A stretch of 64,000 nucleotides of DNA, taken from the NCBI GenBank assembly GCA_963732795.1, contig CAVTAV010000003.1:66050-130049 (forward strand), written 5' to 3'. Shown here piece after piece: positions 7,908 to 36,535 of this stretch (its first letter is position 1; each line of letters begins with the position of its first letter). A model generated the notes under the pieces. That model was given only the letters and a program-made list of their open reading frames with translations, was not told where the DNA came from and made no database searches. The stretch comes from an uncultured Alphaproteobacteria bacterium. GTDB taxonomy: Bacteria; Pseudomonadota; Alphaproteobacteria; CAVTAV01. Both the position numbers and the translations under genes were made by a program.

Positions 7908-7980
7908 GTCATTCCCGCGCAAGCGGGAATCCAAAAAACTCTTTGAAATCAGGGAGATTCCCGCTTGCGTGGGAATGACA
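7908..7980. repeat. REP-type palindromic element, family 1 (paired hairpins)
   Basis: GTCATTCCCGCGCAAGCGGGAATCC, a 24-nt spacer, then GATTCCCGCTTGCGTGGGAATGAC. The arms are mutually inverted and each contains a GCGGGA/TCCCGC hairpin. Related copies lie at 22693-22754 and 24578-24646. Confidence 0.85.
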
Positions 7981-13643: not shown

Positions 13644-14888
13644 CTAGGTTCCCGTTTTCGGCAGATCCTCCGGGAGGGGCGTGCCGTCGCCGGGTAGGGC
13701 GATGAGCGGCGGGCGTTGCGGCGCGGCTTCGAGGCCAAGCGCCTCGTGGTAGTAGCCGAGGATCCTTTCCATCACCGAGTCCCAACTGAAACGGCGCGTA
13801 GCGGCACGCGCCGCGAGGCCGATGTCGCGGCGCTGATCCCCGTCCTGCACCAAAGCGGCGATCTTGTCGGCCGCTTCGTCCACATCGGCGGGATCGGCCA
13901 GGAAGCCCGTCGTGCCTTCCATGATCATGGCCTGATGGCCCGGCGTGCGCGCGCAGACGGGCGCGACGCCCGAGGCCATGGCTTCCAGGGTCACGTTGCC
14001 GAAGGTCTCGGTGACGCTCGGATTGAAGAAGATGTCCGTCGAGGCATAGGCGCCGCGCCAGATCCTCGTCCGTCCAGGAAGCCGGTGAACACGGCGTCGG
14101 GGGCCCATTCCGCCATGCGCTCGCGGGCCGGCCCGTCCCCCACGATCAGCACGCGGTGGGCCACGCTGCGGGACTTCAGCGCGTCATGGACCCGCGCGAA
14201 GTGACGCAATCCCTTCTCCAGCACTAGCCGGCCAACAAATCCGATCGCGACCTCGTCGTCAGCGATGCCGAGGCTCCGCCGCCACGCGAGATCGCGTTTG
14301 GCCGGGCTGAACAGCGCCCGGTCGACGCCGCGGCTCCAGGGCCGGATGTCATTGCCCATGCCCTGGTCCTGCAGGATCTTCACCATCGGGATGGAGGGGG
14401 CATAGACATGGGCGCATTTGCCATAGAACCGCCGCATATAGGCGACCATGTACGGCTCGAGCCAGGCCATATGGTAATAGCGGCAATAGGTGTCAAAGCG
14501 GGTGTGGAACGAGCCCACGACCGGGCAGCCGAACTCCCGCGCGGCCTTGATCGCGCCCTGTCCCAGAAGGTCCGGCACCGAGACGTGGATGAGGGTTGGC
14601 CCGAATGCCTTCAATTCGCGCTTCGCCGCCCGGGGCAGCCCTAGCGATATCCGATATTCCGGGCGGAAGGGGAAGCGGGACCGACGGCACCGGCACCAGC
14701 CGGCCGACATGCTTGAATGGCGGATTCTTGACCGTCGGCGAGAAGATCAGGACCGGAATGTCGCGGTCCTCGAGGAACTTGGCCAGCCTGTTCAGGACTT
14801 TCACCGCCCCGTCCACGGCGCAGTTATAGCCGCCCGAAAACAGCGCGACACGGAGAGAAGCGGGCACGTTCGTGCTGGTCATTCGCAT
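13644..14888 (-). CDS. GT4-family glycosyltransferase; frame broken about three times as sequenced
   Basis: Segments are VALFSGGYNCAVDG, then SFHTRFDTYCRYY...VGRLVLEKG...RVLIVGDGPARE...FTGFLDG, then DIFFNPSVTETFGNVTLEAMASG...GFLADPADV. Breaks lie near 14680 and twice near 14050. It has a paralogue at 35316-36535. Confidence 0.8.
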
Positions 14889-17017: not shown

Positions 17018-18556
<1,539 letters not shown>

Positions 18557-18557
18557 G

Positions 18558-18645
18558 TCGTCGTCATCGCGAGGCGCGGTACGCGCCGTGGCGATCCAGG
18601 ACGGCTGGATTGCCGCGCCCCTTCGGGGCTAGCGGGGATGACGAA
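18558..18645. repeat. MITE/REP-like palindromic element, family 2
   Basis: GTCGTCATCGCGAGGCGCGGTACGCGCCGTGGCGATCCAGG...CTGGATTGCCGC...GGGGATGACG. It has nested hairpins and inverted termini. A second copy lies at 40010-40089. Confidence 0.8.
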
Positions 18646-18662
18646 CTGTTGTTGGGGCGTCC

Positions 18663-19676
18663 CTACTCCGGCCAGCCCGAATGCATCTTGTAGGGCGCGC
18701 TGATGACCAGGGCTTCGACCTTGAGGATCTTGCCGTCGCGCACCTTGAACAGCTCGCCGATGATGCTCTCGTAAGGGTGCAGCAGGCGCCCCGGCATCAT
18801 CACCTTGCCGTAACCGGGAACGTCGATGGAGGTCACCGTCCCAGCGTGATCGAAGCAGACGACGCCGAAGACGAGGCCACGCTCGGGGTCGGTCAGGAGG
18901 TAGCGTCGCGGCTGGATGCGGGTGATATAGCGCCAGAAACCGGTGTTGAACTGGTCCTTGCAGGTCATGGCAGAAAGATTGAACGTGCCGTTCTCGGCGC
19001 TGACGCCCGTGCCGTGCGTGGGATTAAGGACCGTCTGCTCGCCGTTCTCGATCCGGATGCATTTATCGTCGAACGGCACGAAGGACCCGGTGCCCTGCTC
19101 GATGCCGTCGAAATATTTGTTGGCGATGTCGATCAAGCCCTGGGCGTCGGTGCGGGTCGACGGATCCTCGACCTCGTCGAAGACCGGTTGGGGAGTCATG
19201 CCGTCCGGGTTGTAGAGCCGCTCGCCCGGCCGGGCCACCAACATCTCGGCTTCGGTGATCATGCGGTCGGCGACCCGCAGGCGCAGGTTCACGACGACCG
19301 GCTCGCCGCTCTCCTTCATTAGCCCGTAAAACACCACCGTGCCGTCGTCGGGCTCCGTTGCGTATATCTTGGTGGTCGGTAGGTCGCTGGCGACGCCCCA
19401 CATGCCGTCATTGAGACCCATCTCGACGCCGTTCTCGGTGTAGCGGACGTCGCTCGCGGTCGGAGCCTGAGAGGAATCATGGGCGACCATCGCCGCGAGG
19501 AACTGGTCGACCATGCCCTTGAGGCAATCGCGGTCGCAGTCCTGAGCGGCAGGGGCGGCGGCAGGCGCCGCCGTCTGTTCGCTGGACTGCTTCGATGAAT
19601 TGCCCGAATCGCATGCCGCCAGGGTCAGGGCGCAAAGGCCCATCGCCGCCGTCAGTCGCACCAAGCCTTCCCGCAT
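18663..19676 (-). CDS. Secreted lipoprotein of unknown function, tandem paralogue 1 of 3
   Basis: 337 aa with lipobox LTLAAC. Conserved family blocks are CDxxCL...MVAHD.S.AP.A..V.YTEN, C.R.ENG and FD..G...KI..IEAL. Confidence 0.7.
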   Translation of the reverse strand: MREGLVRLTAAMGLCALTLAACDSGNSSKQSSEQTAAPAAAPAAQDCDRDCLKGMVDQFLAAMVAHDSSQAPTASDVRYTENGVEMGLNDGMWGVASDLPTTKIYATEPDDGTVVFYGLMKESGEPVVVNLRLRVADRMITEAEMLVARPGERLYNPDGMTPQPVFDEVEDPSTRTDAQGLIDIANKYFDGIEQGTGSFVPFDDKCIRIENGEQTVLNPTHGTGVSAENGTFNLSAMTCKDQFNTGFWRYITRIQPRRYLLTDPERGLVFGVVCFDHAGTVTSIDVPGYGKVMMPGRLLHPYESIIGELFKVRDGKILKVEALVISAPYKMHSGWPE

Positions 19677-19707
19677 CGCCCCCTCCCCAAAATAACACCC
19701 GTGACGC

Positions 19708-20706
19708 CTAGTCGCCCCACTTGTCCTTCGTGCCGTAGGGCATGGTCGACAAGGTCGCGGCGATCTGCTTGATCTTGCCGTTCACGACCTTGAAGGACTC
19801 GAGAATGAGCGCGTTGAACGGCCGATGCGCGGCGCCGGTATATTTGTAGGTGCCGAAGCCCGGAATGTCGGTCGAGTCGACATTGCCCGCCTGATTGAAC
19901 ATCACGATCATCGAGACGATGCCGTGCTCCTCGTCGATCGCCGCCAGATGCCGCTGATCGATCTTGGTGATATACCGCCACATCATGCTGTTGATGTTGC
20001 CGGTGCAGCTCATCGCACCGATATTCGGCGCGCCGGGCCGTGCCTTGGCGTCCGGATCGTTGGCGGTCACGGCACCGTTCTCGACCCGGCCGCAATCGTC
20101 CGCGAACGGGACGTAGTCGGCCTTGTTGTCCTGCAGGGCGTCGAAATATTTGTTGGCGTCGTCGATCATGACCTCGCGGGTCGAACGCTGGTCTTGCGGA
20201 ACGACCTCGGCCCAAACCGGATCGGGCGTGACGTCGTAGCTGCCGAAGCCGCCGCCGGAGGAACGCACCACGATCGCCTCGATCTCTGTGATCTTCTGAT
20301 CGTCGACCTTCATGCGCCCGGCGAACCAGACCGGATTGCCGCTCTCCTTCATCACGACATGGAAGGCGAGCTGGCCGAGCATCGGATCGGGAATGACGAG
20401 CTTGTAATTCGTCGGCAGATCGCTCGCCACGCCCCAGATGCCGTCGCCGACTTCGACGACCTGAGCGTTCTCGGTGTACTTCACATTGTCCGCAAGCGGC
20501 GCCTTGCTCGGATCATGGGCGACCATGGCTTCGAGCAGCATATCGAAGTCGCTGGTCAAGCAGGCGGTATCGCAGGCAGCCGGCGCGGCCGGCGCCGTTT
20601 GGTCGGTCGTGTTCTCGGATTGCTCATTGCCGCTCTGGCCGCAGGCGGCGAGGCCGGCGGCGACGAGCGCGCCGAGGATGGCGGTGCGAATGGTTTGGCT
20701 CGACAT
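19708..20706 (-). CDS. Secreted lipoprotein of unknown function, tandem paralogue 2 of 3
   Basis: ATG at 20706 (MSSQTIRTAILGALVAAGLAAC, a lipobox), 332 aa. It shares the conserved blocks of its neighbours. Confidence 0.7.
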   Translation of the reverse strand: MSSQTIRTAILGALVAAGLAACGQSGNEQSENTTDQTAPAAPAACDTACLTSDFDMLLEAMVAHDPSKAPLADNVKYTENAQVVEVGDGIWGVASDLPTNYKLVIPDPMLGQLAFHVVMKESGNPVWFAGRMKVDDQKITEIEAIVVRSSGGGFGSYDVTPDPVWAEVVPQDQRSTREVMIDDANKYFDALQDNKADYVPFADDCGRVENGAVTANDPDAKARPGAPNIGAMSCTGNINSMMWRYITKIDQRHLAAIDEEHGIVSMIVMFNQAGNVDSTDIPGFGTYKYTGAAHRPFNALILESFKVVNGKIKQIAATLSTMPYGTKDKWGD

Positions 20707-20723
20707 GTCTCTGTCCCTTTCTC

Positions 20724-21683
20724 TTACCAGCCCGAGGGCATGCGGTAGGGCACCTGATTGATCAGGGCCTCGATCTGCCGGATCTTGCCACTCTTGATCT
20801 TGAAGATTTCGGCGATCTCGAAGGTCAGCGGCTGGGTGAAGGGCGGGTTGATCGGCACCACTGTGCCGTCCGGCTGGGTGTATTGCTTGGCTTGACCGTT
20901 GTGGTCGAAGAACACCAGCGAGAACACAAGGCCGGTCTCCTTGTCGATCACCGGATAGCGGCGGTCGCGCACGTCCGAGACCAGTACGGAGAAGCCGGTG
21001 TCGAACTGCGCTTTGCATCCCATCTTGGCCATGCCCTGGCCGTTCGGATTGTTCGCGGTGATCGCGCCGTTTTCGCGGCGCTGGCAATCGGGGTCGAACG
21101 GCACGTTGGCGCCGGAATTCTCTGTATCGAGGCCGGTGAAATAGTGGTTCGCGGCCGCCTCCATCTCGTCGCGCGAGACCTGCTCGGAGGGCTTCAGCTT
21201 CTCCATCAGGATCGGCAGCGGCTTGGAGAAGTTAGGTTTGCCCAAGGGGCCGCCATTGCCCGAGGGCCGGCTTACGATCTGCTCTGCCTCGGTGATCTTG
21301 TCGTCGACCACCTTCAGCCGGATCGCGATAATGACCGGGTCTTCATGCTCCTTCATCTGGCCGAGGAAACCGACCTGCTCGCTATCCGTGTCGATGACAT
21401 AGAGGCGATAGGTGGAATCGGCCGAGGCGGTGGCCCACATCGCGTCCTGGAACGTCAGCTCCTGCCCGTTCTCGGTAAATTTCACATTGTCGGCGAAGGG
21501 CGCCATGCTCGGGTCGTGGGCGACCATGGCGGCGGTGTATTTGTCCATCGCGCCCTTGAGGCAGGCCCGGTCGCAGGCCATGTCCGCGGCCCGCGCGGCG
21601 TGCCTAACGCTGAGTAGGACGACGGCGCTTGCTATGAGCGCGAGCGAGACGAATCGGAATCGTTGGGTGACGGTCGTCGGCAT
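20724..21683 (-). CDS. Secreted protein of unknown function, tandem paralogue 3 of 3
   Basis: ATG at 21683 (MPTTVTQRFRFVSLALIASAVVLLSVRHAARA, a Sec signal), 319 aa. Same conserved blocks, including CDRACL and MVAHDPSMAP. Confidence 0.7.
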   Translation of the reverse strand: MPTTVTQRFRFVSLALIASAVVLLSVRHAARAADMACDRACLKGAMDKYTAAMVAHDPSMAPFADNVKFTENGQELTFQDAMWATASADSTYRLYVIDTDSEQVGFLGQMKEHEDPVIIAIRLKVVDDKITEAEQIVSRPSGNGGPLGKPNFSKPLPILMEKLKPSEQVSRDEMEAAANHYFTGLDTENSGANVPFDPDCQRRENGAITANNPNGQGMAKMGCKAQFDTGFSVLVSDVRDRRYPVIDKETGLVFSLVFFDHNGQAKQYTQPDGTVVPINPPFTQPLTFEIAEIFKIKSGKIRQIEALINQVPYRMPSGW

Positions 21684-21820
21684 GAATATAACTCCCCCTT
21701 GGCCGCGATGCGCGACATGAACCCGGCACGGGGAGAGCCGCATGGCCACACCCCAAATTGTGCCCATTGGCTCCTGTTTACCATAATGGGCGGGGATGGT
21801 GAATTCGGAGTTCGGGAAAT

Positions 21821-22669
21821 CTAGCGTTTCAGGCCCGCATAGAGCTCCAGCAACTCATCGACCCCCGAAAACACCACATGGGCGCGTTTCGAAGGCGGCT
21901 GGGTTGCGAAATCCTCGTCCGTCGAAATCCCGGTGGTGACGCCGATCGCCAGCGATTTGCCGCTGTGAGCCATGGGGATCTCCAGCGCCGGATCGTCGCC
22001 GACCACAACGAGGTCTCGTGTCGGGATTCTCATGCGCCGGCCAATGCTGCGGAGCGCCTCGGGCGAGGGTTTACCGAGAACCTTGACCTTGCAGCGGGTA
22101 ATCTGGGTGATCGCGCCGACGATGGCGACCGAGGTTCCGAGCGCGCGGCCATTGGCGGTGGCGAAAAAGGGCGCTAGCGAGCTGGTATAGAGCTTGGCGC
22201 CCTGCCAGATCGCCCGGCAGGCGACCTCGATATGATCCATGGTGAATTCGCGGAACCAGCCGACAAAGATCGCCTCGGCCATCGCGCCCTCGCGCGGCTC
22301 GACCACCTCGATCCCTGCGTCCGCAATCGGCCCGTAGACGCCTTCTCCGCCGAGCACGATGGCCCGCTTGACGCCACGCCGCGAAAGGTAATCGGCGGCG
22401 GCGCTCGAGGGCGTCATAATCTCGTCGTCCTGAAGCGGAAAGCCGAGCTTGCGCAGGATGACGCCGTAGGCCGCCGGCGGGCGGGTCGTGCCGTTGGTAA
22501 AGCTGACGACGGGAACGCCACGCTCGTTTAGCAGCTTTACAAGCTCCAATGCGCCCGGCAGCGGCGATAGCCCCTTGTTCTCCTTGTTGCCGAGAACCAG
22601 CGTGCCGTCCATGTCGAACACGAAGCCGCGCGCGGCTTTGAGGCGTTTAATAAGGTCTTGTTTTCTCAT
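21821..22669 (-). CDS. HAD-superfamily hydrolase, subfamily IIA
   Basis: 282 aa with the HAD motif I FDMDGTL, then FTNGTT, and a C-terminal VVGDD motif. Confidence 0.85.
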   Translation of the reverse strand: MRKQDLIKRLKAARGFVFDMDGTLVLGNKENKGLSPLPGALELVKLLNERGVPVVSFTNGTTRPPAAYGVILRKLGFPLQDDEIMTPSSAAADYLSRRGVKRAIVLGGEGVYGPIADAGIEVVEPREGAMAEAIFVGWFREFTMDHIEVACRAIWQGAKLYTSSLAPFFATANGRALGTSVAIVGAITQITRCKVKVLGKPSPEALRSIGRRMRIPTRDLVVVGDDPALEIPMAHSGKSLAIGVTTGISTDEDFATQPPSKRAHVVFSGVDELLELYAGLKR

Positions 22670-22692
22670 CTATTTCTCAGACTTCAGTATGG

Positions 22693-22754
22693 TCGTCCCC
22701 GCGAAAGCGGGAATCTCAAGACGGCGTCTGGAGTCCCGCTTTCGCGGGAATGAC
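22693..22754. repeat. REP-type palindromic element, family 1
   Basis: GTCGTCCCCGCGAAAGCGGGAATC...GAGTCCCGCTTTCGCGGGAATGAC. It overlaps the last codons of the biotin carboxylase gene and encodes ...VIPAKAGLQTPS. Confidence 0.85.
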
Positions 22755-24098
22755 GTCGGTGGCGGCGAGAAACTTGGGGAAGAACGAGGTCGTTACCCCG
22801 CCTTCGGCGAACTCAGGATCGGCCATCAGGCCCGCATGGAGATCGACATTCGTCGCGATGCCCTCGATCCGGCAACTCGCCAGCGCCTCTCGCATGCGGG
22901 CGAGCGCGGCCGGGCGGTCCGCGCCCCAGGTGATGATCTTGCCGATGAGCGAATCGTAGAACGGCGGCACCATCTGGCCCGATTCGATATGGGTGTCGAC
23001 GCGGATGCCCTCGCCGGCGGGCCAGAGGGCGCGGGTGACCCTTCCGGGGCTCGGGCGGAAGTCATGCGCCGTGTCCTCGGCGTTGATGCGGCATTCAATG
23101 GCGTGGCCGGAGAAGGCGATGTCGCTTTGGGCCATCCGCAGGCCCTGGCCGTCCGCGATGGCGATCTGCTCGGCGATGAGATCGACGCCGGTGATCGCCT
23201 CGGTCACGGGATGCTCGACCTGGATGCGGGCGTTCATTTCGAGGAAATAGAACTCGTCGCGGTCGACATCGACCAGGAACTCGACCGTTCCGGCGCCGCG
23301 ATAGGCGAGATGCCGGCTGAAGGCAACGGCGGAATCCAGAATGCGCCGGTGCAGCGCGTCCGAAAGATTAGGTGCGAGGGCTTCCTCGACGAGCTTTTGG
23401 TAGCGCCGCTGGATCGAGCAGTCGCGGGTGCCGAGATGCACAACGTCTTCGCCGTCGCCGAGAACCTGCACCTCAACATGGCGGCCGCGCTCGACATAGC
23501 GCTCGAGATAGACGCGGGAGTCCTTGAAGGCGGCCTCGGCCTCGGCCATGGCGAGCTCGATCTGATGGGCGAGCTTGGCCGGCTCATGCACCAGCTTCAT
23601 GCCGCGCCCGCCGCCGCCGCCGACCGCCTTGATGAGGATGGGATAGCCGATCTCTTCGGCGAGCGCCTTGGCTTCATCCGCTTCACTCACCGACCCGCCG
23701 GGAACGACCGGCACCTTGGCGGCGACAGCGTTCTCTCTCGCGCGAAGCTTGTCGCCGACCGCCGAGAGCTGCTGGATGGTCGGGCCGATGAAAGTGATAC
23801 CGGCCTTGTCGCATTCCTCGGCGAGCATGGCGTTCTCGGAGAGGAAGCCGTAGCCGGGATGCACGGCATCCGCGCCGCGCGCCTTGGCGGCGGAGACGAC
23901 CGCGCGGGGATCGAGGTAGCTCTGGCCCGGCGGCGGCGGGCCGATACAGATGACGTCGTCGGCCAGATGGGCGGGGACAGAGGCCATATCCGCTTCGGAA
24001 GCCGCCAGCACGCTGTCGATGCCGAGATCACGGCAGGTGCCGATGATGCGGCCGGCGATCTCGCCGCGATTGGCGATCAGAATGCGCCGGATACTCAT
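22716..24098 (-). CDS. accC: Biotin carboxylase (AccC-type, divergent; possibly dedicated to the local cluster)
   Basis: ATG at 24098 (MSIRRILIANRGEIA), 460 aa. ATP-grasp motifs HPGYGFLSEN, KAVGGGGGRGMK and EMNARIQVEHPVTE are present. ATGA overlap with the BCCP stop. Confidence 0.9.
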   Translation of the reverse strand: MSIRRILIANRGEIAGRIIGTCRDLGIDSVLAASEADMASVPAHLADDVICIGPPPPGQSYLDPRAVVSAAKARGADAVHPGYGFLSENAMLAEECDKAGITFIGPTIQQLSAVGDKLRARENAVAAKVPVVPGGSVSEADEAKALAEEIGYPILIKAVGGGGGRGMKLVHEPAKLAHQIELAMAEAEAAFKDSRVYLERYVERGRHVEVQVLGDGEDVVHLGTRDCSIQRRYQKLVEEALAPNLSDALHRRILDSAVAFSRHLAYRGAGTVEFLVDVDRDEFYFLEMNARIQVEHPVTEAITGVDLIAEQIAIADGQGLRMAQSDIAFSGHAIECRINAEDTAHDFRPSPGRVTRALWPAGEGIRVDTHIESGQMVPPFYDSLIGKIITWGADRPAALARMREALASCRIEGIATNVDLHAGLMADPEFAEGGVTTSFFPKFLAATDVIPAKAGLQTPS

Positions 24099-24565
24099 TT
24101 TTCGGCCGGCTCGACCCGCATCAGGACATGGCCGTATTCGACGAACTGGCCGTTCTCGGCGCAAATCTCCGTTACCGTGCCTTTGACGCCGGCATAGACC
24201 GAGTTCATCAGTTTCATCGTCTCGATGATGCCGACGACCGTCTCTTCCTCAACCTTCGAGCCGACTTCGACGAAAGGCGGCGCGCCGGGCTTGGGCGCGC
24301 GGTAGAAGGTGCCGAGAAGCGGCGGCATGATGTCGAGCTTGCCGTCCTCGGAGGGCGCGGGCTTCGCCGGCTTGGCGGCTTCGGCGGGCGCGGCGGCGGG
24401 TTGGTCGTGGCCGACCGTGCTGCGTTCCTCGGTCCAGACCGACGGTCCGGCGCCGGAGCGGCGCAAGGTAAGCGTGAATTTGTCCGTCTCGATCCGCATC
24501 TCGTCATAGGACGAGGAATCGAGCAGGCGGAGGATCTCCCGGACGTCGTCGTTGGTGAGGTTCAT
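24095..24565 (-). CDS. accB: Biotin carboxyl carrier protein
   Basis: 156 aa with an AccB-like N-domain, an Ala/Pro linker, and the biotinyl-lysine motif IETMKLMN. Confidence 0.9.
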   Translation of the reverse strand: MNLTNDDVREILRLLDSSSYDEMRIETDKFTLTLRRSGAGPSVWTEERSTVGHDQPAAAPAEAAKPAKPAPSEDGKLDIMPPLLGTFYRAPKPGAPPFVEVGSKVEEETVVGIIETMKLMNSVYAGVKGTVTEICAENGQFVEYGHVLMRVEPAEK

Positions 24566-24577
24566 GTGCCGCCCGAG

Positions 24578-24646
24578 TCGTCGTCCCCGCGGAAGCGGGG
24601 ACTTAGAGACGGTGCCTGGATTCCCGGTTTCGCGGGAATGACGACG
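24578..24646. repeat. REP-type palindromic element, family 1
   Basis: GTCGTCGTCCCCGCGGAAGCGGGGAC...GGATTCCCGGTTTCGCGGGAATGACGAC. Same orientation and architecture as 22693-22754. It sits between the PpsB-like stop and the accB start. Confidence 0.85.
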
Positions 24647-24668
24647 GGCGTGCTTGCGGCCATCCGGA

Positions 24669-25722
24669 TCATCGCTTTCCGAAGGCGGCGAAGACGTGGT
24701 CCATCGCGGTCGATTTGGTGTCCGCGACGGGCTTCGCGTCCTTGTTGGCCCAGACGGTTTCAGGCCGGCTTTGCAGCAGGTAGATCGCGCCGGACTGGTC
24801 GACCGCCCATTCGATGTCCTGGGGGCTCCCGTAATGGCGCTCGATTCCCTTGCCGATCTCGGCGAGCTTGCCGAGCTCTTCGTCCGATACGCAAGCGACG
24901 TTCCGCTGGTCCTCTTCGACTTCGATATCGCGGACGCCGCCCTTTTCGACATCGGGCACATGCTGGCGGGTCTTGTCGGAGATCGTGCGGCCGCGGATCT
25001 CGCCGGTGACCTTGTTCACGAGGAACGTATCCGGCGTTACCTCCCCGCTGACGATCGCCGAGCCCAAGCCCCAGCTTCCCTCGATCGCGATCATGGAGCG
25101 GTCGCCGGTGGTGGGGCTGCGGGTGAACATCACGCCCGAGGCGCGCGACATCACCATGCGCTGCACGACCACGCCCATGGCGATCTGGTCCTCTGGCAAA
25201 TCGAGGCGCAGCCGGTAGCTTACGGATTCGGTCGAATAGAGGCTCGCCCAGCAATCGCGGATCGACTGGATGACATTGTCGGCGCCCTGAACCCAGAGAT
25301 AAGTGTCCTGCAGGCCTGCAAAGCTCGCCTCGGCGCTGTCCTCGCTCGTCGCGCTGGAGCGCACCGCGACTGGCGCGCGTGCGTCGCCCTCGCAAAGCGT
25401 CGCATGGGCCTCGCCGACCGCGATCGCCAGAATCCTCCGGGAACGGCATGGTACGCACCCGCTCGCGGATCTCGGCGCTGCCGGCCTTGATCGCCTCGGT
25501 GCTCTCGCCGCGCAACGCCTGGATGGCCTTGCGGATTGCCCCCTCGGCGTCGTTCGCTTTCAGAAACCGTTCGAAGGCTGACGTCGTGACCACGAAGCCG
25601 GGCGGCACGCTGATGCCGGCGCCGGTCAGCTCGCCGAGGCTCGCGCCTTTGCCGCCGACCGACGGGCGGTCGGTGATCTTGATGTCCTTGAACCAGCGGA
25701 GAAACTCGGCACTGTCACTCAT
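24669..25722 (-). CDS. PEP/pyruvate-binding (PPDK_N, ATP-grasp) domain protein, PpsB-like subunit of a split dikinase; one frame break
   Basis: The N-terminus is VGGKGASLGELTGAGISVPPGFVVT. After the break near 25432 come VAVRSSATSEDSAEASFAGLQDTY, MVMSRASGVMFT and DIEWAVD. The span equals 3n+1. Confidence 0.82.
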
Positions 25723-25729
25723 GGGGCGC

Positions 25730-27554
25730 TCAATCCAGAATCGTCACGACGCCGTCATTGCCGTTCACCCGGAGGCGCTGGCCGGTCTTGATCAGCTTGG
25801 TCGCCTTGCCGGTGCCGACGACGGCGGGCATGCCATACTCCCGAGCAACGATCGCGGCATGGGACATGGTCCCGCCGATGTCGGAGACGGCCGCCTTGAT
25901 CTTGCCGAAGACCGGCCCCCAGCTTGGGTTGGTGACCGGACAGACCAGGATTTCGCCTTCCAGGATCGCGCCGATATCGTTGACGTTCTCCAGCACTCGC
26001 GCGACGCCTTCGACGATGCCGGGCGAAGCCGCGAAGCCCTGAATTTCGTTTTCGCTCGTTTCATCCGCCGGCTTTGACCAGGCGTGCAAGGTTTCCGACG
26101 TGATGCCCCAGAGCATCTGCACGGCCGGATCGGCGATGGTCTCCGGCATCGGCCCGAGCGCGGGCGGGGCGTTCCAGGCCTTCAGCTTCTCGTGGATCTT
26201 TTTGCGCTTCTTCACGATCGGCGGCCAGTGCTGTGCGCCGACCGACGGTGACCCCGCCGCCCAGGACATCATGGCGTCGCCGAGCGCGAGATCGACCTCG
26301 GTGTGATGGAGATGGAACACGTCCTCGCCATCCTCCAGCAATCCATGCTTGGCGAGAAGCGCGCCGAATTCGCGGATCTTGTTGAAGAACAGGGTCGTGA
26401 ACCAGTGCTCGCAATAGAATTTGTGGTTCTCGACATAGGGGAACACGAGGTGGCAAAGGCCGAGCATCTGGTCGAAGGTCGCCTTGTCCTCGTCGGTCGG
26501 GAGCAGGCCACGATATTCGTCGATGATGCGCTGGCGCTCCTCGCGCAGCTTCTCGGTCGGGCGCTCCAGGCTGATGCCCTTCTTCACCTGATCGATATAG
26601 CGGGGCAGCGCGGCGAAAGGCACCGAAAGATCGTCGTTCCAACTCCGATGATTGTGGTGGAAGCCGTCGCCGGTGGAGATGTGGAACCAGGGCTCGCGGG
26701 ACTTGTCGAGCTCGTTCAGCCATTCCTGGCCGCGCGCGCCCTTGGCCTTGATCGCAGCCATGGTTTCGTCGGGGCCCTTACCTTCCTTGAAGCAGTCGTC
26801 GACGCCGCAATCCACCGCGACTTTAGCCAACCGTTTCAACTCGTCGTCGGGCCGGAACATCAGCACTTCGATGCCGGCGACCATCCGCGCGACCATCTGG
26901 TCCGGGATTTCCGGAAAGGCCTTCTTGCAGAACTCGAAAAAGACCAAATAGGCGCCGTAGCCGAGCATCAGGAATTCGAAGTGGTAGTGCCACATCTTCG
27001 AATAGGATTCGACGGTGCGATGATAGGCCTCGCGGACGAAATGGTTTTCGGCGATGCCGCGCGCGTTCTGGACCGTCGAATTCCGGCTCGTATTCGTCGA
27101 GCGAGGGGACCCGGATCGCGTTGATCTCGTCCAGGAGGGCGCGCATCTTGACCTCCCATTTCCCGTAGAGGTCGTTCCAATGCTCGTAGTAATGGCCGGC
27201 GCGGGGCTGGAAATAGGCCAGCCGCTCCTCGATCCGCTTGGGGTCGGTGACCGCATTGGCGGTGATATAGACGCGGCCGTTGACGATGCGGTGGTCGATG
27301 CCTAGGGCGGTCGGGAAGGCATAGACGCGGCTCGTGACCGCGCCCATGGCCTGATAGGGCACTTCCGCCGTGATGACGTCGAAGGCCGTTATGGGCTCCG
27401 GGAAGTGCATCGAATTGTAAAACCAGAACCGCTGGTCGTCCTCCTCCCGGAACCGGGTGAAGTACGGATACATGGACTGCCATCCCTCGGTTCCGGCCAC
27501 ATCGGTGATCTCGGAGGGGAGGGGAAACGGATTTTTCTTCGTGGTGCCGCTCAT
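25730..27554 (-). CDS. PEP-utilising mobile-domain protein, PpsA-like subunit of a split dikinase; one frame break
   Basis: The ATG at 27554 is preceded by GGAGAG. A ~500-aa N-region of unassigned fold is followed by a swivel phosphohistidine domain (ILVCPVTNPSWGPVF...GGTMSHAAIVAREYGMPAVVG). The break lies near 27085. The span equals 3n+1. Confidence 0.8.
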
Positions 27555-27843
27555 TCGCGCGCTCTCTCCGGTCAAAGCTTCCCGAAAATGTCCCGCTTGC
27601 GCGCAGGATTCGTGTCGTTGGGCCCCGGCGGGGGACCCCCTGTTATAGTATAGATACCGCCGATTTGAAGGGGGTAGTTGAGGCCGCCGAGGCCTCTTGC
27701 CTGGAACCGAACACCCCTCGCTGTCGTTTACCTGTCATCACCAGCCCTAACGCCGCGCCGAGGCCGCACGGATCGCCCAGCCCTGGAGAGAGGCCGGCGA
27801 CCGCAGGTGAAGTGCGGCGTCTTCACAAGGAGGAGGTTGAAAA

Positions 27844-28296
27844 ATGACAAACGTTCCCGCCAAGTCCCTGTGCTTACCGCTTACCGTCGCCCTGCTCGGC
27901 GCGGCCTGTCTTGGCGGCTGCGCGACGAGCACCCATGTGGTCCAGCAATCGCGTCCCAGCGTGACCTATCACTTCGACAGCGATGAGGGTCTGGTGGAAG
28001 CCACTAACAAGGCCCAGCGCTATTGCGAGCAATACAATGCCTGGCCGGAACAGGTGGGCACCGACGTCGATGGCGACGAAGTGACGTTCGTCTGTGACCG
28101 GGACGAAGCCTATGAGCCGGAGCCCGGCTGGACCGACCGCCATGTCGAGTTCACTTTCGCCAGCCACCACGATCTGGTCGAGGCGACCGAGCGCGCCGAG
28201 GGCTATTGCGCCCGCTACGACGCCGAGCCGACCGATCTTCATGTTCACGTGAACCCGGACGGCTCGCGCACCGCGACCTTCGATTGTGAGGCGTAA
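27844..28296 (+). CDS. Lipoprotein of unknown function with an internal duplication
   Basis: A strong SD (AAGGAGGAGG) precedes the start. The lipobox is ACLGGC. Two ~45-aa repeats each contain (D/H)xLVEAT.(K/R)A..YC..Y...P...F.C. Confidence 0.75.
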   Translation: MTNVPAKSLCLPLTVALLGAACLGGCATSTHVVQQSRPSVTYHFDSDEGLVEATNKAQRYCEQYNAWPEQVGTDVDGDEVTFVCDRDEAYEPEPGWTDRHVEFTFASHHDLVEATERAEGYCARYDAEPTDLHVHVNPDGSRTATFDCEA

Positions 28297-28341
28297 GCGT
28301 CATCGCAAAGGCGCTGCGGTCCTCGCAGTGACTGTGTCGGT

Positions 28342-29354
28342 CTAATTCGCCCAGGGATCGACCAGGATCTTGCACTGGCTTGTGCGATGGCGCAGGCCTT
28401 CGAAGGCGGGAGGCATGGCGGCCAGAGTCCACGGTTTCCGTAATCATCGCATGCGGTTCGACATGGCCGGCATCGAGTGTATCGATGGCGACCTCGAATT
28501 CCTTGACGCCGTAGAAGGCCGAGGGCTGGATCACCGCCGACTTCTGGATGAGCTGGAACGGGTTGATCGGTTCGGGCACGGTGCACAGGCCGACGAGCAC
28601 GACCGTTCCGCGCGGGCGGACCTGCTCGATGGCCTGGATGATCAGGCCGGGCGCGCCGACGCATTCGAACACGATATCGGGCGCACCACCCAACGCGTGG
28701 TTGATGTCCTCGTTTTGGTTTTCCGAGACTGTGATGAATTCGTCCGCGCCCATGGTGCGGGCCAGAGGCTCGGGCAGACGGTCGAGATTGGTGACCGCGA
28801 TCTTGCCCGCGCCGAGATGCCGGGCCCAGAAGATCACGCCGAGCCCGATCGGCCCCGCGCCGATCACCAAAACGCGGGAGCCCGCCTTGATATTGGCCAG
28901 ATTGGCGGCCCGGAGGCTTACCGCCAGAGGTTCAACCAGCGCACCGTCGTCCATCGAGACGGTCTTGGGCAGCCGGATGCATTGATGGGTCTCGGCGACG
29001 GAGAATTGCGCATAGCCGCCGCCGTCCAGCTTGAATTTCTCGCACCAGGACGGCTCGCCCATGAGGCACGGTCCGCAATGGCCGCAGCCATGGGTCGGCA
29101 TGACGGCGACGGTATCGCCCTTCTTGATCCCTTCGACGCCCTTGCCGATGTCGATGACCTCGCCGGCATATTCATGGCCGAGCACGTCGCCCCTTGTGCG
29201 CGTGATAGGCGGGATCGACCGTGGCATGGAGATCGCTGCCGCAAATGCCGCAACGCTCGACTTTGACCATGACCTCGTTCGGTCCCGGCGTCGGGTCGGC
29301 GACGTCCTCGACTTCGAGGGGTTGGTTCAGCGCATTGAAGACGGCGGCTTTCAC
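28342..29354 (-). CDS. Zn-dependent medium-chain alcohol dehydrogenase; two frame breaks
   Basis: Segments are MKAAVFNALNQPLEVEDV...CGICGSDLH, then GHEYAGEV...GCGHCGPCLMG...VIGAGPIGLG, then AMPPAFEGLRHRTSQCKILVDPWAN. Breaks lie near 29190 and 28432. The stop TAG is at 28342-28344. Confidence 0.85.
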
Positions 29355-29365
29355 GGGACCGGTTC

Positions 29366-29607
29366 CTAGACGTTCACGTCGACGACGCAGACCACGTCGC
29401 CGACCTTGGCGTCCTCGTCCTCCGGCACGCGGATTTCGAGCAGCTTGCCGTTGGCGGTCGCCTGCACCTCTTCGGTGACCTTTTCGGTCTCGAACTCGTA
29501 AAGCGTCTCGCCTTCCTTGAAGTCGTCACCGGGCTGCTTGTGCCACTTCACGATGGTGGCTTCCTGCATGTTCATCCCGATGCGGGCGAGCTTGAGATTA
29601 CTTTCAT
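29366..29607 (-). CDS. Free-standing lipoyl (biotin/lipoyl attachment) domain protein, ~80 aa; start region ambiguous
   Basis: NLKLARIGMNMQEATIVKWHKQPGDDFKEGETLYEFETEKV...VGDVVCVVD is a single lipoyl domain with the lysine in ETEK. The ATG at 29607 is out of frame by one base. The in-frame ATG (MNMQ, at about 29575) would cut off the first strand. Confidence 0.7.
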
Positions 29608-29625
29608 CGGCGGGGCGACCTCGAC

Positions 29626-30597
29626 TTACTTTCCCAGAGTGGCGTTGACGGCGGCGATGACCTTGTCCGGATTCGGCAGGACGGCGGCCTCGGCATTCGG
29701 CGCATAGGGCACGAATACGTCCGGCGTGGTGACCCGCTTGACCGGCGCTTTCAGCATGTCGAAGCCCCGGTCGGCGACCACGGCGGCAATATGGCTCGCG
29801 GCGCTGCACCGGTCGCGCGCCTCGTCCACGATCACGAGCCGGCCGGTCTTCTTGACCGAGCTCAGGATGCCGTCCTCGTCCAGGGGCACGAGGGTGCGGG
29901 GATCGAGCACCTCGGCATTGACGCCTTCTTCGGCCAGGGCATCGGCTGCATCGAGGGCCGTGCGCACCGTCGTGCCGATGCCGACGATCGTGACGTCGGT
30001 CCCCTCGCGGAGGATATTGGCCTTGCCGAACGGCACGGTGTGATCGCCATCCGGCACGTCCCAACGCTCGCCGCCGCGGCCGACCGCCAGGAGGAAGATC
30101 GTCGGATTGTCGCCGCGGATCGCGGTCTTGAGGAGGCCCTTGGCGTCGCCCGGCGTCGCGGGGACTGCGACATTGAGACCGCCCAGATTCATGAACAGCG
30201 GGTGCGGCGAATCGGAATGCTGCGAGGCGTTGCTGCCGCCCGCGCCGTAGCCCGCCATCACCGTCACGGGCATCCTCATCTGGCCGCCGGTCATGAGGCG
30301 GAGCTTCGCCATCTGATTGGCGATGCCGTCGAAGCCCATATAGGTGAAGTTCGAGAACATCATGTGGAAGATCACGCGATGGCCGCCCGCCGCCGCGCCG
30401 ATCGACATGCCGGTGAGCGCGTTCTCGGAAATCGGCGTGTTGCGGATGCGGTTGAGGCCGAATTTATCGACGAGGCCGCGGGTGTCGCCGAACATGCTGA
30501 TCTCGACGTCCTCGCCGAACAGGATGACCTTCTCGTCGCGCTCCATCTCCTCGAACAGCGCTTCGTTCACGGCCTGGATATAGCGTTTCTTTGCCAT
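29626..30597 (-). CDS. TPP-dependent 2-oxoacid/acetoin dehydrogenase E1 component, beta subunit
   Basis: 323 aa with the E1-beta pattern (ILFGEDV, RIRNTPISENALTGMSIGAA, C-terminal transketolase-like domain). Confidence 0.9.
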   Translation of the reverse strand: MAKKRYIQAVNEALFEEMERDEKVILFGEDVEISMFGDTRGLVDKFGLNRIRNTPISENALTGMSIGAAAGGHRVIFHMMFSNFTYMGFDGIANQMAKLRLMTGGQMRMPVTVMAGYGAGGSNASQHSDSPHPLFMNLGGLNVAVPATPGDAKGLLKTAIRGDNPTIFLLAVGRGGERWDVPDGDHTVPFGKANILREGTDVTIVGIGTTVRTALDAADALAEEGVNAEVLDPRTLVPLDEDGILSSVKKTGRLVIVDEARDRCSAASHIAAVVADRGFDMLKAPVKRVTTPDVFVPYAPNAEAAVLPNPDKVIAAVNATLGK

Positions 30598-30608
30598 TGT
30601 GCTCCCCC

Positions 30609-31607
30609 TTACGGCCGGTGATCCGAGAACATCACTTTGAACGCGAGGTCGATATCGGCCGGCGGGCTCGACGCCGCGAACTCTGCCGCGGCCTCCACGG
30701 TGTCGGCGATGCGCTTCTCGATCGCGGAGACGTCACCGGCATTGGCCGAATCTTCCAGCAGCTTCTTTTTTAGCCGCTCGACCGGGCACTTCTTGATCCA
30801 GCTCTCGATCTCGGCATCCTCGCGGTATTTCTGGCCGGCGGTGAAGCGCTCCTCGGCCTCGATATGGCCGCGCCAGCGATAGGTGTGGGCCTCGATGAAG
30901 CTCGGCCCGCCGTCCTTGCGCGCCCGCTCGATGGATTCCCCGGCCGCTTGCCAAACTTCCGAGACGTCGTTGCCGTCCACGTCATAGGTCGGCATGCCGA
31001 AGGCCTTCGCCCGGTCGATCAGCTTGCCGGCGGTGACGGTAGAGGAGGGGGTCAATTCGGAGAAGGTATTGTTCTCGCAGACATAGACCACCGGTAATTC
31101 CCAGCGGGCCGCGATGTTGAGCAATTCCATGAACGCCCCTTCGTTCGCCGCGCCGTCGCCGAAGAAGCAGACCGCCACCCGGCCGTCCTGATTGAGCTTG
31201 GCGGAATAGCCCGCGCCGGTGGCGATGCCGAGGCCCGCGCCGACGATGCCGTTCGCGCCGAGAATGCCCTTGGAGACGTCGGCGACATGCATCGAGCCGC
31301 CCATGCCTTGGCAGATGCCGGTCTTCTTGCCCCAAATCTCCGCCATCATGGCCTTCGGCTCGCCGCCCTTGGCGAGAAAGTGGCCATGGCCGCGATGGGT
31401 CGAGGTGATCATGTCGGAGTCGGTCAGGTGGTTGCAGACGCCCGCGGCGATCGCTTCCTGGCCGATATAGAGATGCACCGCGCCGGGCAGGTTGCCGGCG
31501 GCGGCATCGTCGCGCAGGCGCTCCTCCATCTTGCGGATGAGCAGCATGCGCTCATAGAGCGCCTTGAGCGTCTCCACGCTCGGACCGAAATTCGCCCGAT
31601 CATTCAT
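30609..31607 (-). CDS. TPP-dependent 2-oxoacid/acetoin dehydrogenase E1 component, alpha subunit
   Basis: 332 aa. The TPP-binding motif is GDGAANEGAFMELLNIAARWELPVVYVCENN. Also present are THRGHGH and GSMH. Confidence 0.9.
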   Translation of the reverse strand: MNDRANFGPSVETLKALYERMLLIRKMEERLRDDAAAGNLPGAVHLYIGQEAIAAGVCNHLTDSDMITSTHRGHGHFLAKGGEPKAMMAEIWGKKTGICQGMGGSMHVADVSKGILGANGIVGAGLGIATGAGYSAKLNQDGRVAVCFFGDGAANEGAFMELLNIAARWELPVVYVCENNTFSELTPSSTVTAGKLIDRAKAFGMPTYDVDGNDVSEVWQAAGESIERARKDGGPSFIEAHTYRWRGHIEAEERFTAGQKYREDAEIESWIKKCPVERLKKKLLEDSANAGDVSAIEKRIADTVEAAAEFAASSPPADIDLAFKVMFSDHRP

Positions 31608-35315: not shown

Positions 35316-36535
35316 TTAGTCGAGCACTGCCTGCGTCGCCGGGAACCGCGCATAGCCGAAGATGCGCTGGGCGCGGCGGGCTTTCATGATGTCGCGGTAA
35401 TGGCCGACGAGCTCGTCCATGACTGCGTCCCAGGAATAGGCGGCGCTGCGTTTGCGGGCGGCGAGTGACATGGTCGCGGCGAAGGGCCGGGTCGGTGATC
35501 AGCGCTTCGATCCGGTCGGCGGCTTGGCCGATATCGCCGGGTTCGACGAGGTAGCCCGGTGCGCCGTCCATCGACTAAATTGCTGCTGCCGGTCGCGCGT
35601 AGGCAGACGGTGGGCAGCCCGGCGGCCATGGCTTCCAGCGTGACGTTGCCGAAGGTCTCGGTCAGGCTCGGATTGAAGAAGATATCGGATGACGCATAGG
35701 CGCGGGCGAGATCCGGGCCGTTGAAGAAGCCGGTGAAGATACCTTCCGGCATCCGGGCCTCGAATTGCGGCCGCGCCGGGCCGTCGCCGACGATCATCAC
35801 CCGATGAGGCACACCGCGGCGCTTTGAGCGCGTCATGAAGCTCGGCCACGACGCCGATCGCCTTCTCCTTGACCAGCCGGCCGACGAACAGGAGCACGAT
35901 CTCGTCGTCGCCGATGCCGATGCTGCGCCGCCAGCCGAGGTCGCGCCGGTCGGGCGTGAACATGGTGCGGTCGATGCCGCGGCTCCAGAGCCGGACATCC
36001 CGGCCGATGCGGGCGCTCGCCAGCACCTCCTTCATCGAGGGAGACGGCACATAGACATGTTCGCAATGGGCATAGAAGTGCTGGAGATAGCGCCGGCACG
36101 CGCCTTCAAGCGATTTCAGGCCGTAATAGCGGAAATAGGTATCGAACCGGGTATGGAACGACGCGACGACTGGAATATGGTGCCGCTTCGGCGTATCGCA
36201 GCGCCGAATAGCCCAGGAGATCCGGCGTCGAGACATGAATCAGGTCGGGCTGGAACGCTTTGAGCCGCTTTTTGGCCGAACGCGTGAGCCACGAGGCGAA
36301 GCGGTATTCGGTGCGGCCGGGGATCGCGGCAGAAGGCATCGGGACCAGCGTGCCGCCGAGTGTCGGCCGCGGATGGGGTGCCTTCGGCGAGAAGCACCAG
36401 CACCTCGGTGCCACGGGATTCGAGATAGGCGACCAAACGATTGATCGTGCGGGAATGCCCGTCCGTACAGCAATTGTAATTGCCGGAAAAGACGGCCACG
36501 CGTTCCGGTATGAAGTCTCGGTTCTCGGTCGCCAT
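35316..36535 (-). pseudogene. GT4-family glycosyltransferase, paralogue of 13644-14888, with at least five frame changes
   Basis: Motifs VAVFSGNYNC, SFHTRFDTYFRYY, WSRGIDRTMFTP, VGRLVKEK, RVMIVGDGPARP, DIFFNPSLTETFGNVTLEAMAAG and YLVEPGD are scattered over all three minus-strand frames. They lie between the ATG at 36535 and the TAA at 35316-35318. Confidence 0.7.

Follow-up and report, generated by a model that had tools for sequence, protein, structure and literature searches.

A putative AcvAB/HpeHI-type aryl kinase gene pair with adjoining biotin carboxylase genes in an uncultured alphaproteobacterium

The kinase gene pair and the genes that follow it

The subject of this report is a pair of adjacent minus-strand genes at positions 24669-27554 of a 64,000-nucleotide stretch of DNA, hereafter the window, from an uncultured Alphaproteobacteria bacterium (GenBank assembly GCA_963732795.1, contig CAVTAV010000003.1, positions 66,050 to 130,049). 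A first-pass annotation made from the sequence alone had described two genes 7 nt apart that together resemble a dikinase split in two, the upstream gene ending in a swivel phosphohistidine domain and the downstream gene consisting of the ATP-grasp part only. The open reading frames lie at those coordinates and the domain matches bear the description out. The upstream gene encodes the AcvA/HpeH-like alpha subunit (25730..27554). It begins with an ATG at 27554 preceded by GGAGAG, stops at 25730 and, when read across one frame break at 27079, specifies 607 amino acids (aa). Its only Pfam match is the PEP-utilizers domain (PF00391), which is confined to about 70 residues at the extreme C-terminus (the 72-residue mobile domain) and carries GGTMSHAAIVAREYGMPAV at residues 560-578. 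There, His565 of the GGTMSH motif is invariant across 75 sequences. Pfam returned zero matches across the first ~500 residues of alpha, and the protein can be divided into a putative substrate region (about residues 1-495) and a swivel domain (about residues 500-607).

Following a spacer of 7 nt (25729..25723), the AcvB/HpeI-like beta gene (24669..25722) runs from an ATG at 25722 to a stop at 24669 and encodes 350 aa when read through a break at 25431. Its Pfam match is PPDK_N (PF01326) alone. Since profile positions 2-80 and 85-325 flank the frame break, the two pieces represent a single break within one gene; both of the motifs quoted for it by the first-pass annotation, VGGKGASLGEL and RSSATSEDS, are present. 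The pair has the make-up of a heterodimeric aryl kinase, with substrate and swivel phosphohistidine domains in one subunit and an ATP-grasp-only partner. The TIM barrel that binds phosphoenolpyruvate (PEP) or pyruvate, PF02896, is absent from both alpha and beta by Pfam, and a full-length one-chain PEP synthase with PPDK_N, mobile and PEP-utilizers_C domains is encoded elsewhere in the genome (locus L014, 145-2835).

Directly after beta on the same strand are three further genes that the first-pass annotation did not cover. The first encodes an AcvC/HpeC-like biotin carboxyl carrier protein (BCCP) of 156 aa (24095..24565) with the Pfam domain Biotin_lipoyl and a score above the cut-off of NCBIfam model TIGR00531. 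The second, whose start overlaps the BCCP stop, encodes an AcvD-like biotin carboxylase (BC) of 460 aa (22716..24098) with the Biotin_carb_N, CPSase_L_D2 and Biotin_carb_C domains. The third encodes an AcvF/HpeD-like HAD-IIA (NagD-like) phosphatase of 282 aa (21821..22669) that matches Pfam Hydrolase_6 and Hydrolase_like as well as NCBIfam HAD-SF-IIA. A promoter and terminator scan of positions 18000-28500 gave nothing above shuffled expectation.

Fold of the alpha subunit and relation to known aryl kinases

The first-pass annotation had also proposed that the first ~500 residues of the upstream gene product are not a PEP/pyruvate-binding TIM barrel, and a structure-based search agrees. An AF2 model of alpha built from a 75-sequence alignment (pLDDT 89, pTM 0.90) confirmed the fold matches of an earlier AlphaFold model built from an 11-sequence alignment (pLDDT 62). 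With Foldseek, the only full-length matches in the PDB are structures of Listeria rifampin phosphotransferase (RPH; 5FBU, 5FBT and 5HV1), which align over the rifampin-binding and swivel His domains (E 1e-17, TMq 0.61, ~630 aligned columns). With pyruvate phosphate dikinase (PPDK), PEP synthase, Enzyme I and pyruvate kinase, the Foldseek alignments are limited to the swivel domain of alpha (TMq ~0.15), and a sequence search of the PDB likewise gives a match to the swivel domain only. Since RPH is the sole full-length fold match, the N-terminal region of alpha is, according to the model, an RPH-type helical substrate-binding domain and not a PEP/pyruvate barrel. A conventional PEP synthase or PPDK split by sequence error, which the first-pass annotation had held up as the competing possibility, was considered and rejected: the N-terminal region is matched by neither enzyme, a full-length PEP synthase is encoded elsewhere, and the two-gene layout is kept in 80 species.

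The likeness to the Listeria enzyme, RPH-Lm, extends to beta, which corresponds to the RPH ATP-grasp domain by an NCBIfam match over residues 11-347. However, RPH-Lm combines ATP-grasp, substrate and His domains in that order in one chain, whereas the ATP-grasp domain in the window is a separate gene placed last. The identity is only 17-18% and the substrate is another one. Against the RPH equivalog model NF041857, alpha scores 122 bits and beta 301 bits, both below the cut-off of 999. The family resemblance expressed in the first-pass annotation, that of a split enzyme of the phenylphosphate synthase or rifampin phosphotransferase type that phosphorylates the hydroxyl group of a small molecule, is upheld at this level.

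Oxidative depolymerisation of lignin yields hydroxyphenyl methyl ketones, acetovanillone among them, as major products. To our knowledge, the pathway encoded by the acv and hpe gene clusters is the only known aerobic bacterial route that carboxylates the side chain of these ketones. The clusters have been described as acvABCDEF in Sphingobium sp. SYK-6 by Higuchi et al. 2022 (bioRxiv 10.1101/2022.04.28.489975) and as hpeHICBADEF in Rhodococcus rhodochrous GD02 by Dexter et al. 2022 (PMC9618137). In both systems, a two-subunit kinase (AcvAB or HpeHI) that requires both subunits and MgATP puts a phosphate on the 4-OH of acetovanillone, acetosyringone or 4-hydroxyacetophenone; a three-part biotin carboxylase (AcvCDE or HpeCBA) acts on the acetyl group of the phosphorylated ketone only; and a HAD enzyme takes the phosphate off (bioRxiv 10.1101/2022.04.28.489975; PMC9618137).

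The window genes resemble these clusters in order as well as in kind. The sequence alpha-beta-BCCP-BC-HAD equals acvABCD_F of SYK-6 and hpeHICB_D of Rhodococcus GD02. The AcvA protein of SYK-6 (P0185) was recovered in a search with a sphingomonad homologue, and its chromosomal locus (L110) shows an AraC regulator followed by acvA-F, matching the publication. AcvA is a 612-aa protein with a C-terminal swivel His domain and AcvB is a 347-aa ATP-grasp protein, and in SYK-6 the BCCP, BC and NagD-like HAD genes follow in the same order. Compared with their SYK-6 counterparts, window alpha is 58% identical to AcvA over its full length (607 aa), beta 56% to AcvB, BCCP 50% to AcvC, BC 65% to AcvD, and HAD 40% to AcvF. 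With Hpe of GD02, the comparison is one of gene order and pathway description, by which the kinase, BCCP, carboxylase and phosphatase genes are syntenic; the window differs in having no adjacent HpeE/HpeF-type gene for a coenzyme A (CoA) ligase or hydrolase.

Family models and phylogeny point the same way. Among NCBIfam models, NF006153 and the equivalog NF006151 accept window alpha as well as AcvA, and with the siblings NF006152 and NF006150 both proteins score below the cut-off. An exhaustive HMMER search of 1.84 billion cluster representatives found 656 relatives of alpha at E < 1e-30. A tree was built from 31 acv-context alphas and 48 full-length representatives of the wider family (at most 46% identity), with unlabelled outgroup clades. 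In it, every one of the 31, including AcvA and the window protein, falls into a single clade with 100% SH-aLRT support. Taken together, these results make alpha and beta the probable subunits of an aryl kinase of the AcvAB/HpeHI type, the first enzyme in the pathway that carboxylates 4-hydroxyphenyl methyl ketones once they are phosphorylated. By analogy, the substrate would be 4-hydroxyacetophenone, acetovanillone, acetosyringone or a close analogue. Read in this way, the locus is a new, slightly rearranged copy of the pathway published in 2022 (bioRxiv 10.1101/2022.04.28.489975; PMC9618137). The first-pass annotation had left the substrate open; identity, NCBIfam models and the tree now assign the pair to the AcvAB/HpeHI hydroxyphenylethanone kinase clade. 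One distant representative of the wider family (P0243, 970 aa, 45% identity) aligns to alpha over its own residues 357-963 and has ~350 extra N-terminal residues; it is possibly a natural beta-alpha fusion.

The same two-subunit architecture is shared by two other kinases, and all three types are homologous. The pair could then have phenol as its substrate, as a phenylphosphate synthase (PpsAB), or be a 4-alkylphenol kinase of the CreHI type, with the adjoining biotin carboxylase genes unrelated to it. PpsAB(C) of Thauera aromatica K172 carries its phosphohistidine on the large subunit, binds ATP on the small one and phosphorylates a phenolic hydroxyl, although its partner is a UbiD-type phenylphosphate carboxylase that acts on the ring, whereas the partner in the window is a biotin enzyme expected to act on an acetyl side chain. 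Phenylphosphate carboxylase (PpcABCD) requires several UbiD-like subunits. The genome does hold one UbiD-family gene, but this sole match lies on another contig (C6), so clustered UbiD-type subunits are missing from the genome, and there are no ppc genes near the window genes. The earlier statement that the kinase occurs without any UbiD-type carboxylase is thus correct insofar as the window contains no UbiD-type gene. A carboxylase partner is not missing, however; it is biotin-dependent, with BCCP and BC genes immediately downstream of the kinase and a carboxyltransferase gene on another contig.

Sequence distances also separate the pair from these kinases. Alpha is 58% identical to AcvA, while identity to the Thauera phenylphosphate synthase is 44% for AcvA, compared with Thauera protein 1, and 41% for AcvB (bioRxiv 10.1101/2022.04.28.489975). 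In the tree, alpha sits within the fully supported AcvA clade, apart from the other family representatives. HpeHI has no closer characterised homologue than CreHI of Corynebacterium glutamicum, a heterodimeric 4-methylphenol kinase (46% and 40% identity; PMC9618137). CreHI works with the P450 system CreJEF and the phosphatase CreD on an alkyl side chain, and its context includes no biotin carboxylase; among the genes annotated around the window operon there is neither a P450 nor a CreJEF-type gene. Finally, across phyla the genes for BCCP, BC and HAD keep to the acv order and are either translationally coupled or separated by short distances, which argues against a chance association with the kinase. 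A PpsAB or CreHI function is accordingly hard to credit.

A carboxyltransferase in trans, layout variants and neighbouring genes

The main departure from the SYK-6 arrangement concerns the third carboxylase component. In SYK-6, AcvE lies between BC and HAD. The PycB-type carboxyltransferase (CT; HMGL-like plus PYC_OADA domains) is not in the window operon; BC ends at 22716 and HAD starts at 22669, so there is no room for a CT gene between them, and a REP-like repeat is found at the junction instead. The single AcvE-like CT gene of the genome is on another contig (G000:C4:129801-131253; L015 9801-11292), unlinked to the kinase. Its product is 62-64% identical to a CT encoded within an operon and 51-53% identical to SYK-6 AcvE, and the gene is split by a frame break. 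An unlinked CT orthologue is also present in four of the five related genomes whose kinase locus showed no CT gene. Judged from homology, all components of the pathway (kinase, BCCP, BC, CT and HAD) are present in the genome. The CT gene on contig C4 stands alone between a divergent aldehyde dehydrogenase/cytochrome c pair and a short-chain dehydrogenase/reductase (SDR) gene. The idea of a second conserved operon around the unlinked CT was dropped, as nothing is kept across four related genomes beyond an occasional SDR gene.

Several points weigh against assigning the pair to the Acv/Hpe pathway or to its known substrates. The CT gene is outside the operon and is frame-broken in this assembly. 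The exclusion of alpha from the PpsA and CreH clades rests on published identities, NCBIfam models and unnamed family representatives. An AraC regulator is adjacent to the acv genes in SYK-6, whereas no AcvR-like AraC regulator adjoins the window operon, the best AraC homologues (27-34% identity) being on other contigs. The specificity of AcvAB is broad, extending to 4-hydroxypropiophenone, guaiacol and other compounds (bioRxiv 10.1101/2022.04.28.489975). Because AcvAB accepts a range of 4-hydroxyaryl compounds, the natural substrate may be another 4-hydroxyaryl ketone.

The individual steps can be proposed from the characterised Acv/Hpe homologues. Beta, the ATP-grasp subunit, would bind MgATP and load His565 (GGTMSH) of the alpha swivel domain, which in turn would hand the phosphoryl group on to a ketone held in the helical RPH-like domain of alpha, at its phenolic 4-OH. 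The acetyl methyl group of the resulting aryl phosphate would then be carboxylated by BCCP and BC together with the trans-encoded PycB-type CT. The HAD-IIA phosphatase, product of the last enzyme gene of the operon, would take the phosphate off to give hydroxybenzoyl-acetate, which may be converted to (methoxy)hydroxybenzoate and proceed to ring cleavage. Elsewhere in the genome there is a CoA ligase gene (C2:232598-234224, frame-broken) whose product is 62% identical to the in-cluster ligase of locus L017. A close thiolase was not found in the genome, the best match being 24% identical. The genome also has no gene for MarK (UPF0261), a single-chain alternative to the two-subunit acetovanillone kinase. 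At least seven LigB-type and several intradiol ring-cleavage dioxygenase loci are present.

Relatives of alpha were found in 412 species in a scan of species-representative genomes, and the six components were mapped onto loci of the best 80 of these (58-73% identity). These 80 include Steroidobacteraceae, Rhizomicrobium, Roseiarcus, Burkholderiales, Woeseiaceae, Streptomyces and other Actinomycetota, Acidobacteriota and sphingomonads. The two-gene alpha/beta layout is conserved in 80 species, and the full order alpha-beta-BCCP-BC-CT-HAD occurs in about 45 of 86 related loci. Most of the remaining loci are ended by contig ends or are without one part. The recurrent variants are loci with no BC, loci with no CT, and loci with alpha, CT and HAD alone. 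Examples of the last kind are L022, L030 and L020 from Rhizomicrobium metagenome-assembled genomes (MAGs), in which alpha is followed directly by CT and HAD and there is no beta, BCCP or BC gene nearby. The window and its nearest relatives (L016, L018/L098, L019/L099 and L025; 69-73% identity) represent the variant with no CT. In a 2025 survey, homologues of AcvAB/HpeHI and of the other pathway genes were present in 570 of 17,510 genomes and co-located in 25 (PMC12624787), and dispersed parts are therefore ordinary.

The locus thus adds an uncultured lineage of soil proteobacteria to the carriers of Acv/Hpe genes and illustrates how freely the pathway is reshuffled, with CT, or in other genomes BC, encoded away from the kinase. 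It could also help to improve annotation, in that proteins currently named "PEP-utilizing enzyme", "pyruvate, water dikinase" or "hypothetical protein" could become subunits of aryl (hydroxyphenylethanone) kinases.

Turning to the neighbourhood, genes for the alpha and beta subunits of a thiamine pyrophosphate (TPP)-dependent E1 enzyme are found at window positions 29366-31607, followed by a stand-alone lipoyl protein of ~80 aa with no E2 catalytic domain and then a dehydrogenase. The same E1/lipoyl module lies next to CT-less operons in two Steroidobacteraceae MAGs (L098 18659-20903 and L099 15701-17994). On the other side of the operon, three tandem paralogues of a secreted protein or lipoprotein follow the HAD gene (window 18663-21767). 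Their homologue in L098 (16268-17173) carries Pfam DUF8021, and further homologues adjoin the operon in L018/L098, L085, L090 and L097.

These neighbours raise the question of a variant pathway, in which the CT-less kinase, BCCP, BC and HAD set would have another substrate, a lignin-derived aryl ketone or ketol with, for example, a C3 side chain, or would join the E1/lipoyl module as an undescribed feeder or branch. The recurrence of E1 alpha, E1 beta, the lipoyl protein and an SDR or zinc-dependent alcohol dehydrogenase (Zn-ADH) beside CT-less operons in the window and the two Steroidobacteraceae MAGs, with the E1 proteins 65-68% identical, is in keeping with it, as are E1 pairs near the operon in L017 and L092 and the DUF8021-type secreted proteins after the HAD gene in both the window and L098. 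A closely related E1 pair is nearby in only 4 of about 85 loci, however, and the operon and the E1/lipoyl unit of the window have a plus-strand lipoprotein gene between them, so the two must be separate transcripts. The alpha tree does not show the CT-less operons as a single clade. The orthologous CT encoded in trans in the window genome and in four of the five related genomes without CT at the locus also speaks against a variant chemistry, as does the survey cited above, by which dispersed parts are the norm. On balance a variant pathway is unlikely, and the ordinary Acv/Hpe pathway with a displaced CT is preferred. The corresponding wider proposal, an undescribed lignin-monomer branch in soil Proteobacteria that would combine a displaced CT with the E1 pair, the 80-aa lipoyl carrier, the dehydrogenase and the DUF8021 proteins, is equally improbable. 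If true, such a branch might cleave aryl alpha-ketols or diketones in a TPP/lipoyl-dependent reaction linked to phosphorylation-dependent carboxylation.

Frame breaks and repeats

One apparent insertion per kinase gene had been noted in the first-pass annotation, and each proved to be a single extra base relative to four short-read metagenome contigs: an extra T at 27079 in alpha and an extra T at 25431 in beta. The four contigs are from four different samples and are 98.8-98.9% identical in nucleotide sequence to the window. Over ~7.4 kb, the only insertions or deletions (indels) relative to them are four differences in homopolymer length, the other two being an extra G at 28429 in the upstream Zn-ADH gene and one G fewer at 27764 in an intergenic position. 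The read-through product of alpha (P0001, 607 aa) is encoded intact on all four contigs, and an intact 350-aa beta gene follows alpha on those that reach far enough (L002/L003). Compared with L002, alpha in the window has 14 synonymous and no nonsynonymous codon changes; for beta the counts are 10 and 3. Such a predominance of synonymous changes is a signature of purifying selection.

Unrelated genes are cut into successive pieces in different frames elsewhere in the window, namely two GT4 glycosyltransferase genes and the Zn-ADH gene (13647-14710, 35387-36236 and 28151-29360). On other contigs, the CoA ligase gene already described (G000:C2:232598-234224) and a LigB-type dioxygenase gene (G000:C6:531126-531919) are split, the latter being one of several LigB-type dioxygenase genes affected in this assembly. 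Homopolymer indel errors thus appear to be frequent across it. The assembly has 11 contigs, yet its estimated completeness is only 81%, a combination typical of an uncorrected long-read consensus.

These observations bear on whether the kinase genes are functional at all. True pseudogenes in this strain, with real insertions and a decaying pathway, might be suspected from the fact that alpha, beta and CT are all frame-broken in the sole assembly of the genome. Such decay is nevertheless very unlikely: all four indels relative to four independent short-read contigs are changes in homopolymer length, the substitutions in alpha are exclusively synonymous, the glycosyltransferase, Zn-ADH, LigB dioxygenase and CoA ligase genes are broken likewise, and the low completeness with few contigs fits an uncorrected long-read consensus. 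On the same four grounds (homopolymer indels, codon statistics, similarly split unrelated genes and low completeness), both breaks most likely arose as errors of homopolymer length in the assembly consensus, and the alpha and beta genes are probably intact in the organism. By extension, a gene of this genome that looks like a pseudogene should be taken for one only with support from reads.

The remaining features of the operon are REP-like palindromic repeats. A 68-nt copy (direct repeat family D1) lies between the beta and BCCP genes at 24580..24647, and a second copy, 84% identical and in the same orientation, lies at the BC/HAD junction (22692..22759); together they bracket the BCCP and BC genes. 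The junction copy occupies the canonical site of CT and provides the last codons of BC. REP-mediated deletion of CT as a general cause of the CT-less layout was considered and rejected, as L016 is without CT although no repeat lies between its BC and HAD genes, which overlap. A 36-aa "gene" called on related contigs between beta and BCCP is this same REP-like repeat. The motif has 5 matches in the window where 0.04 are expected, and more copies of its core are present at 7912-7975.

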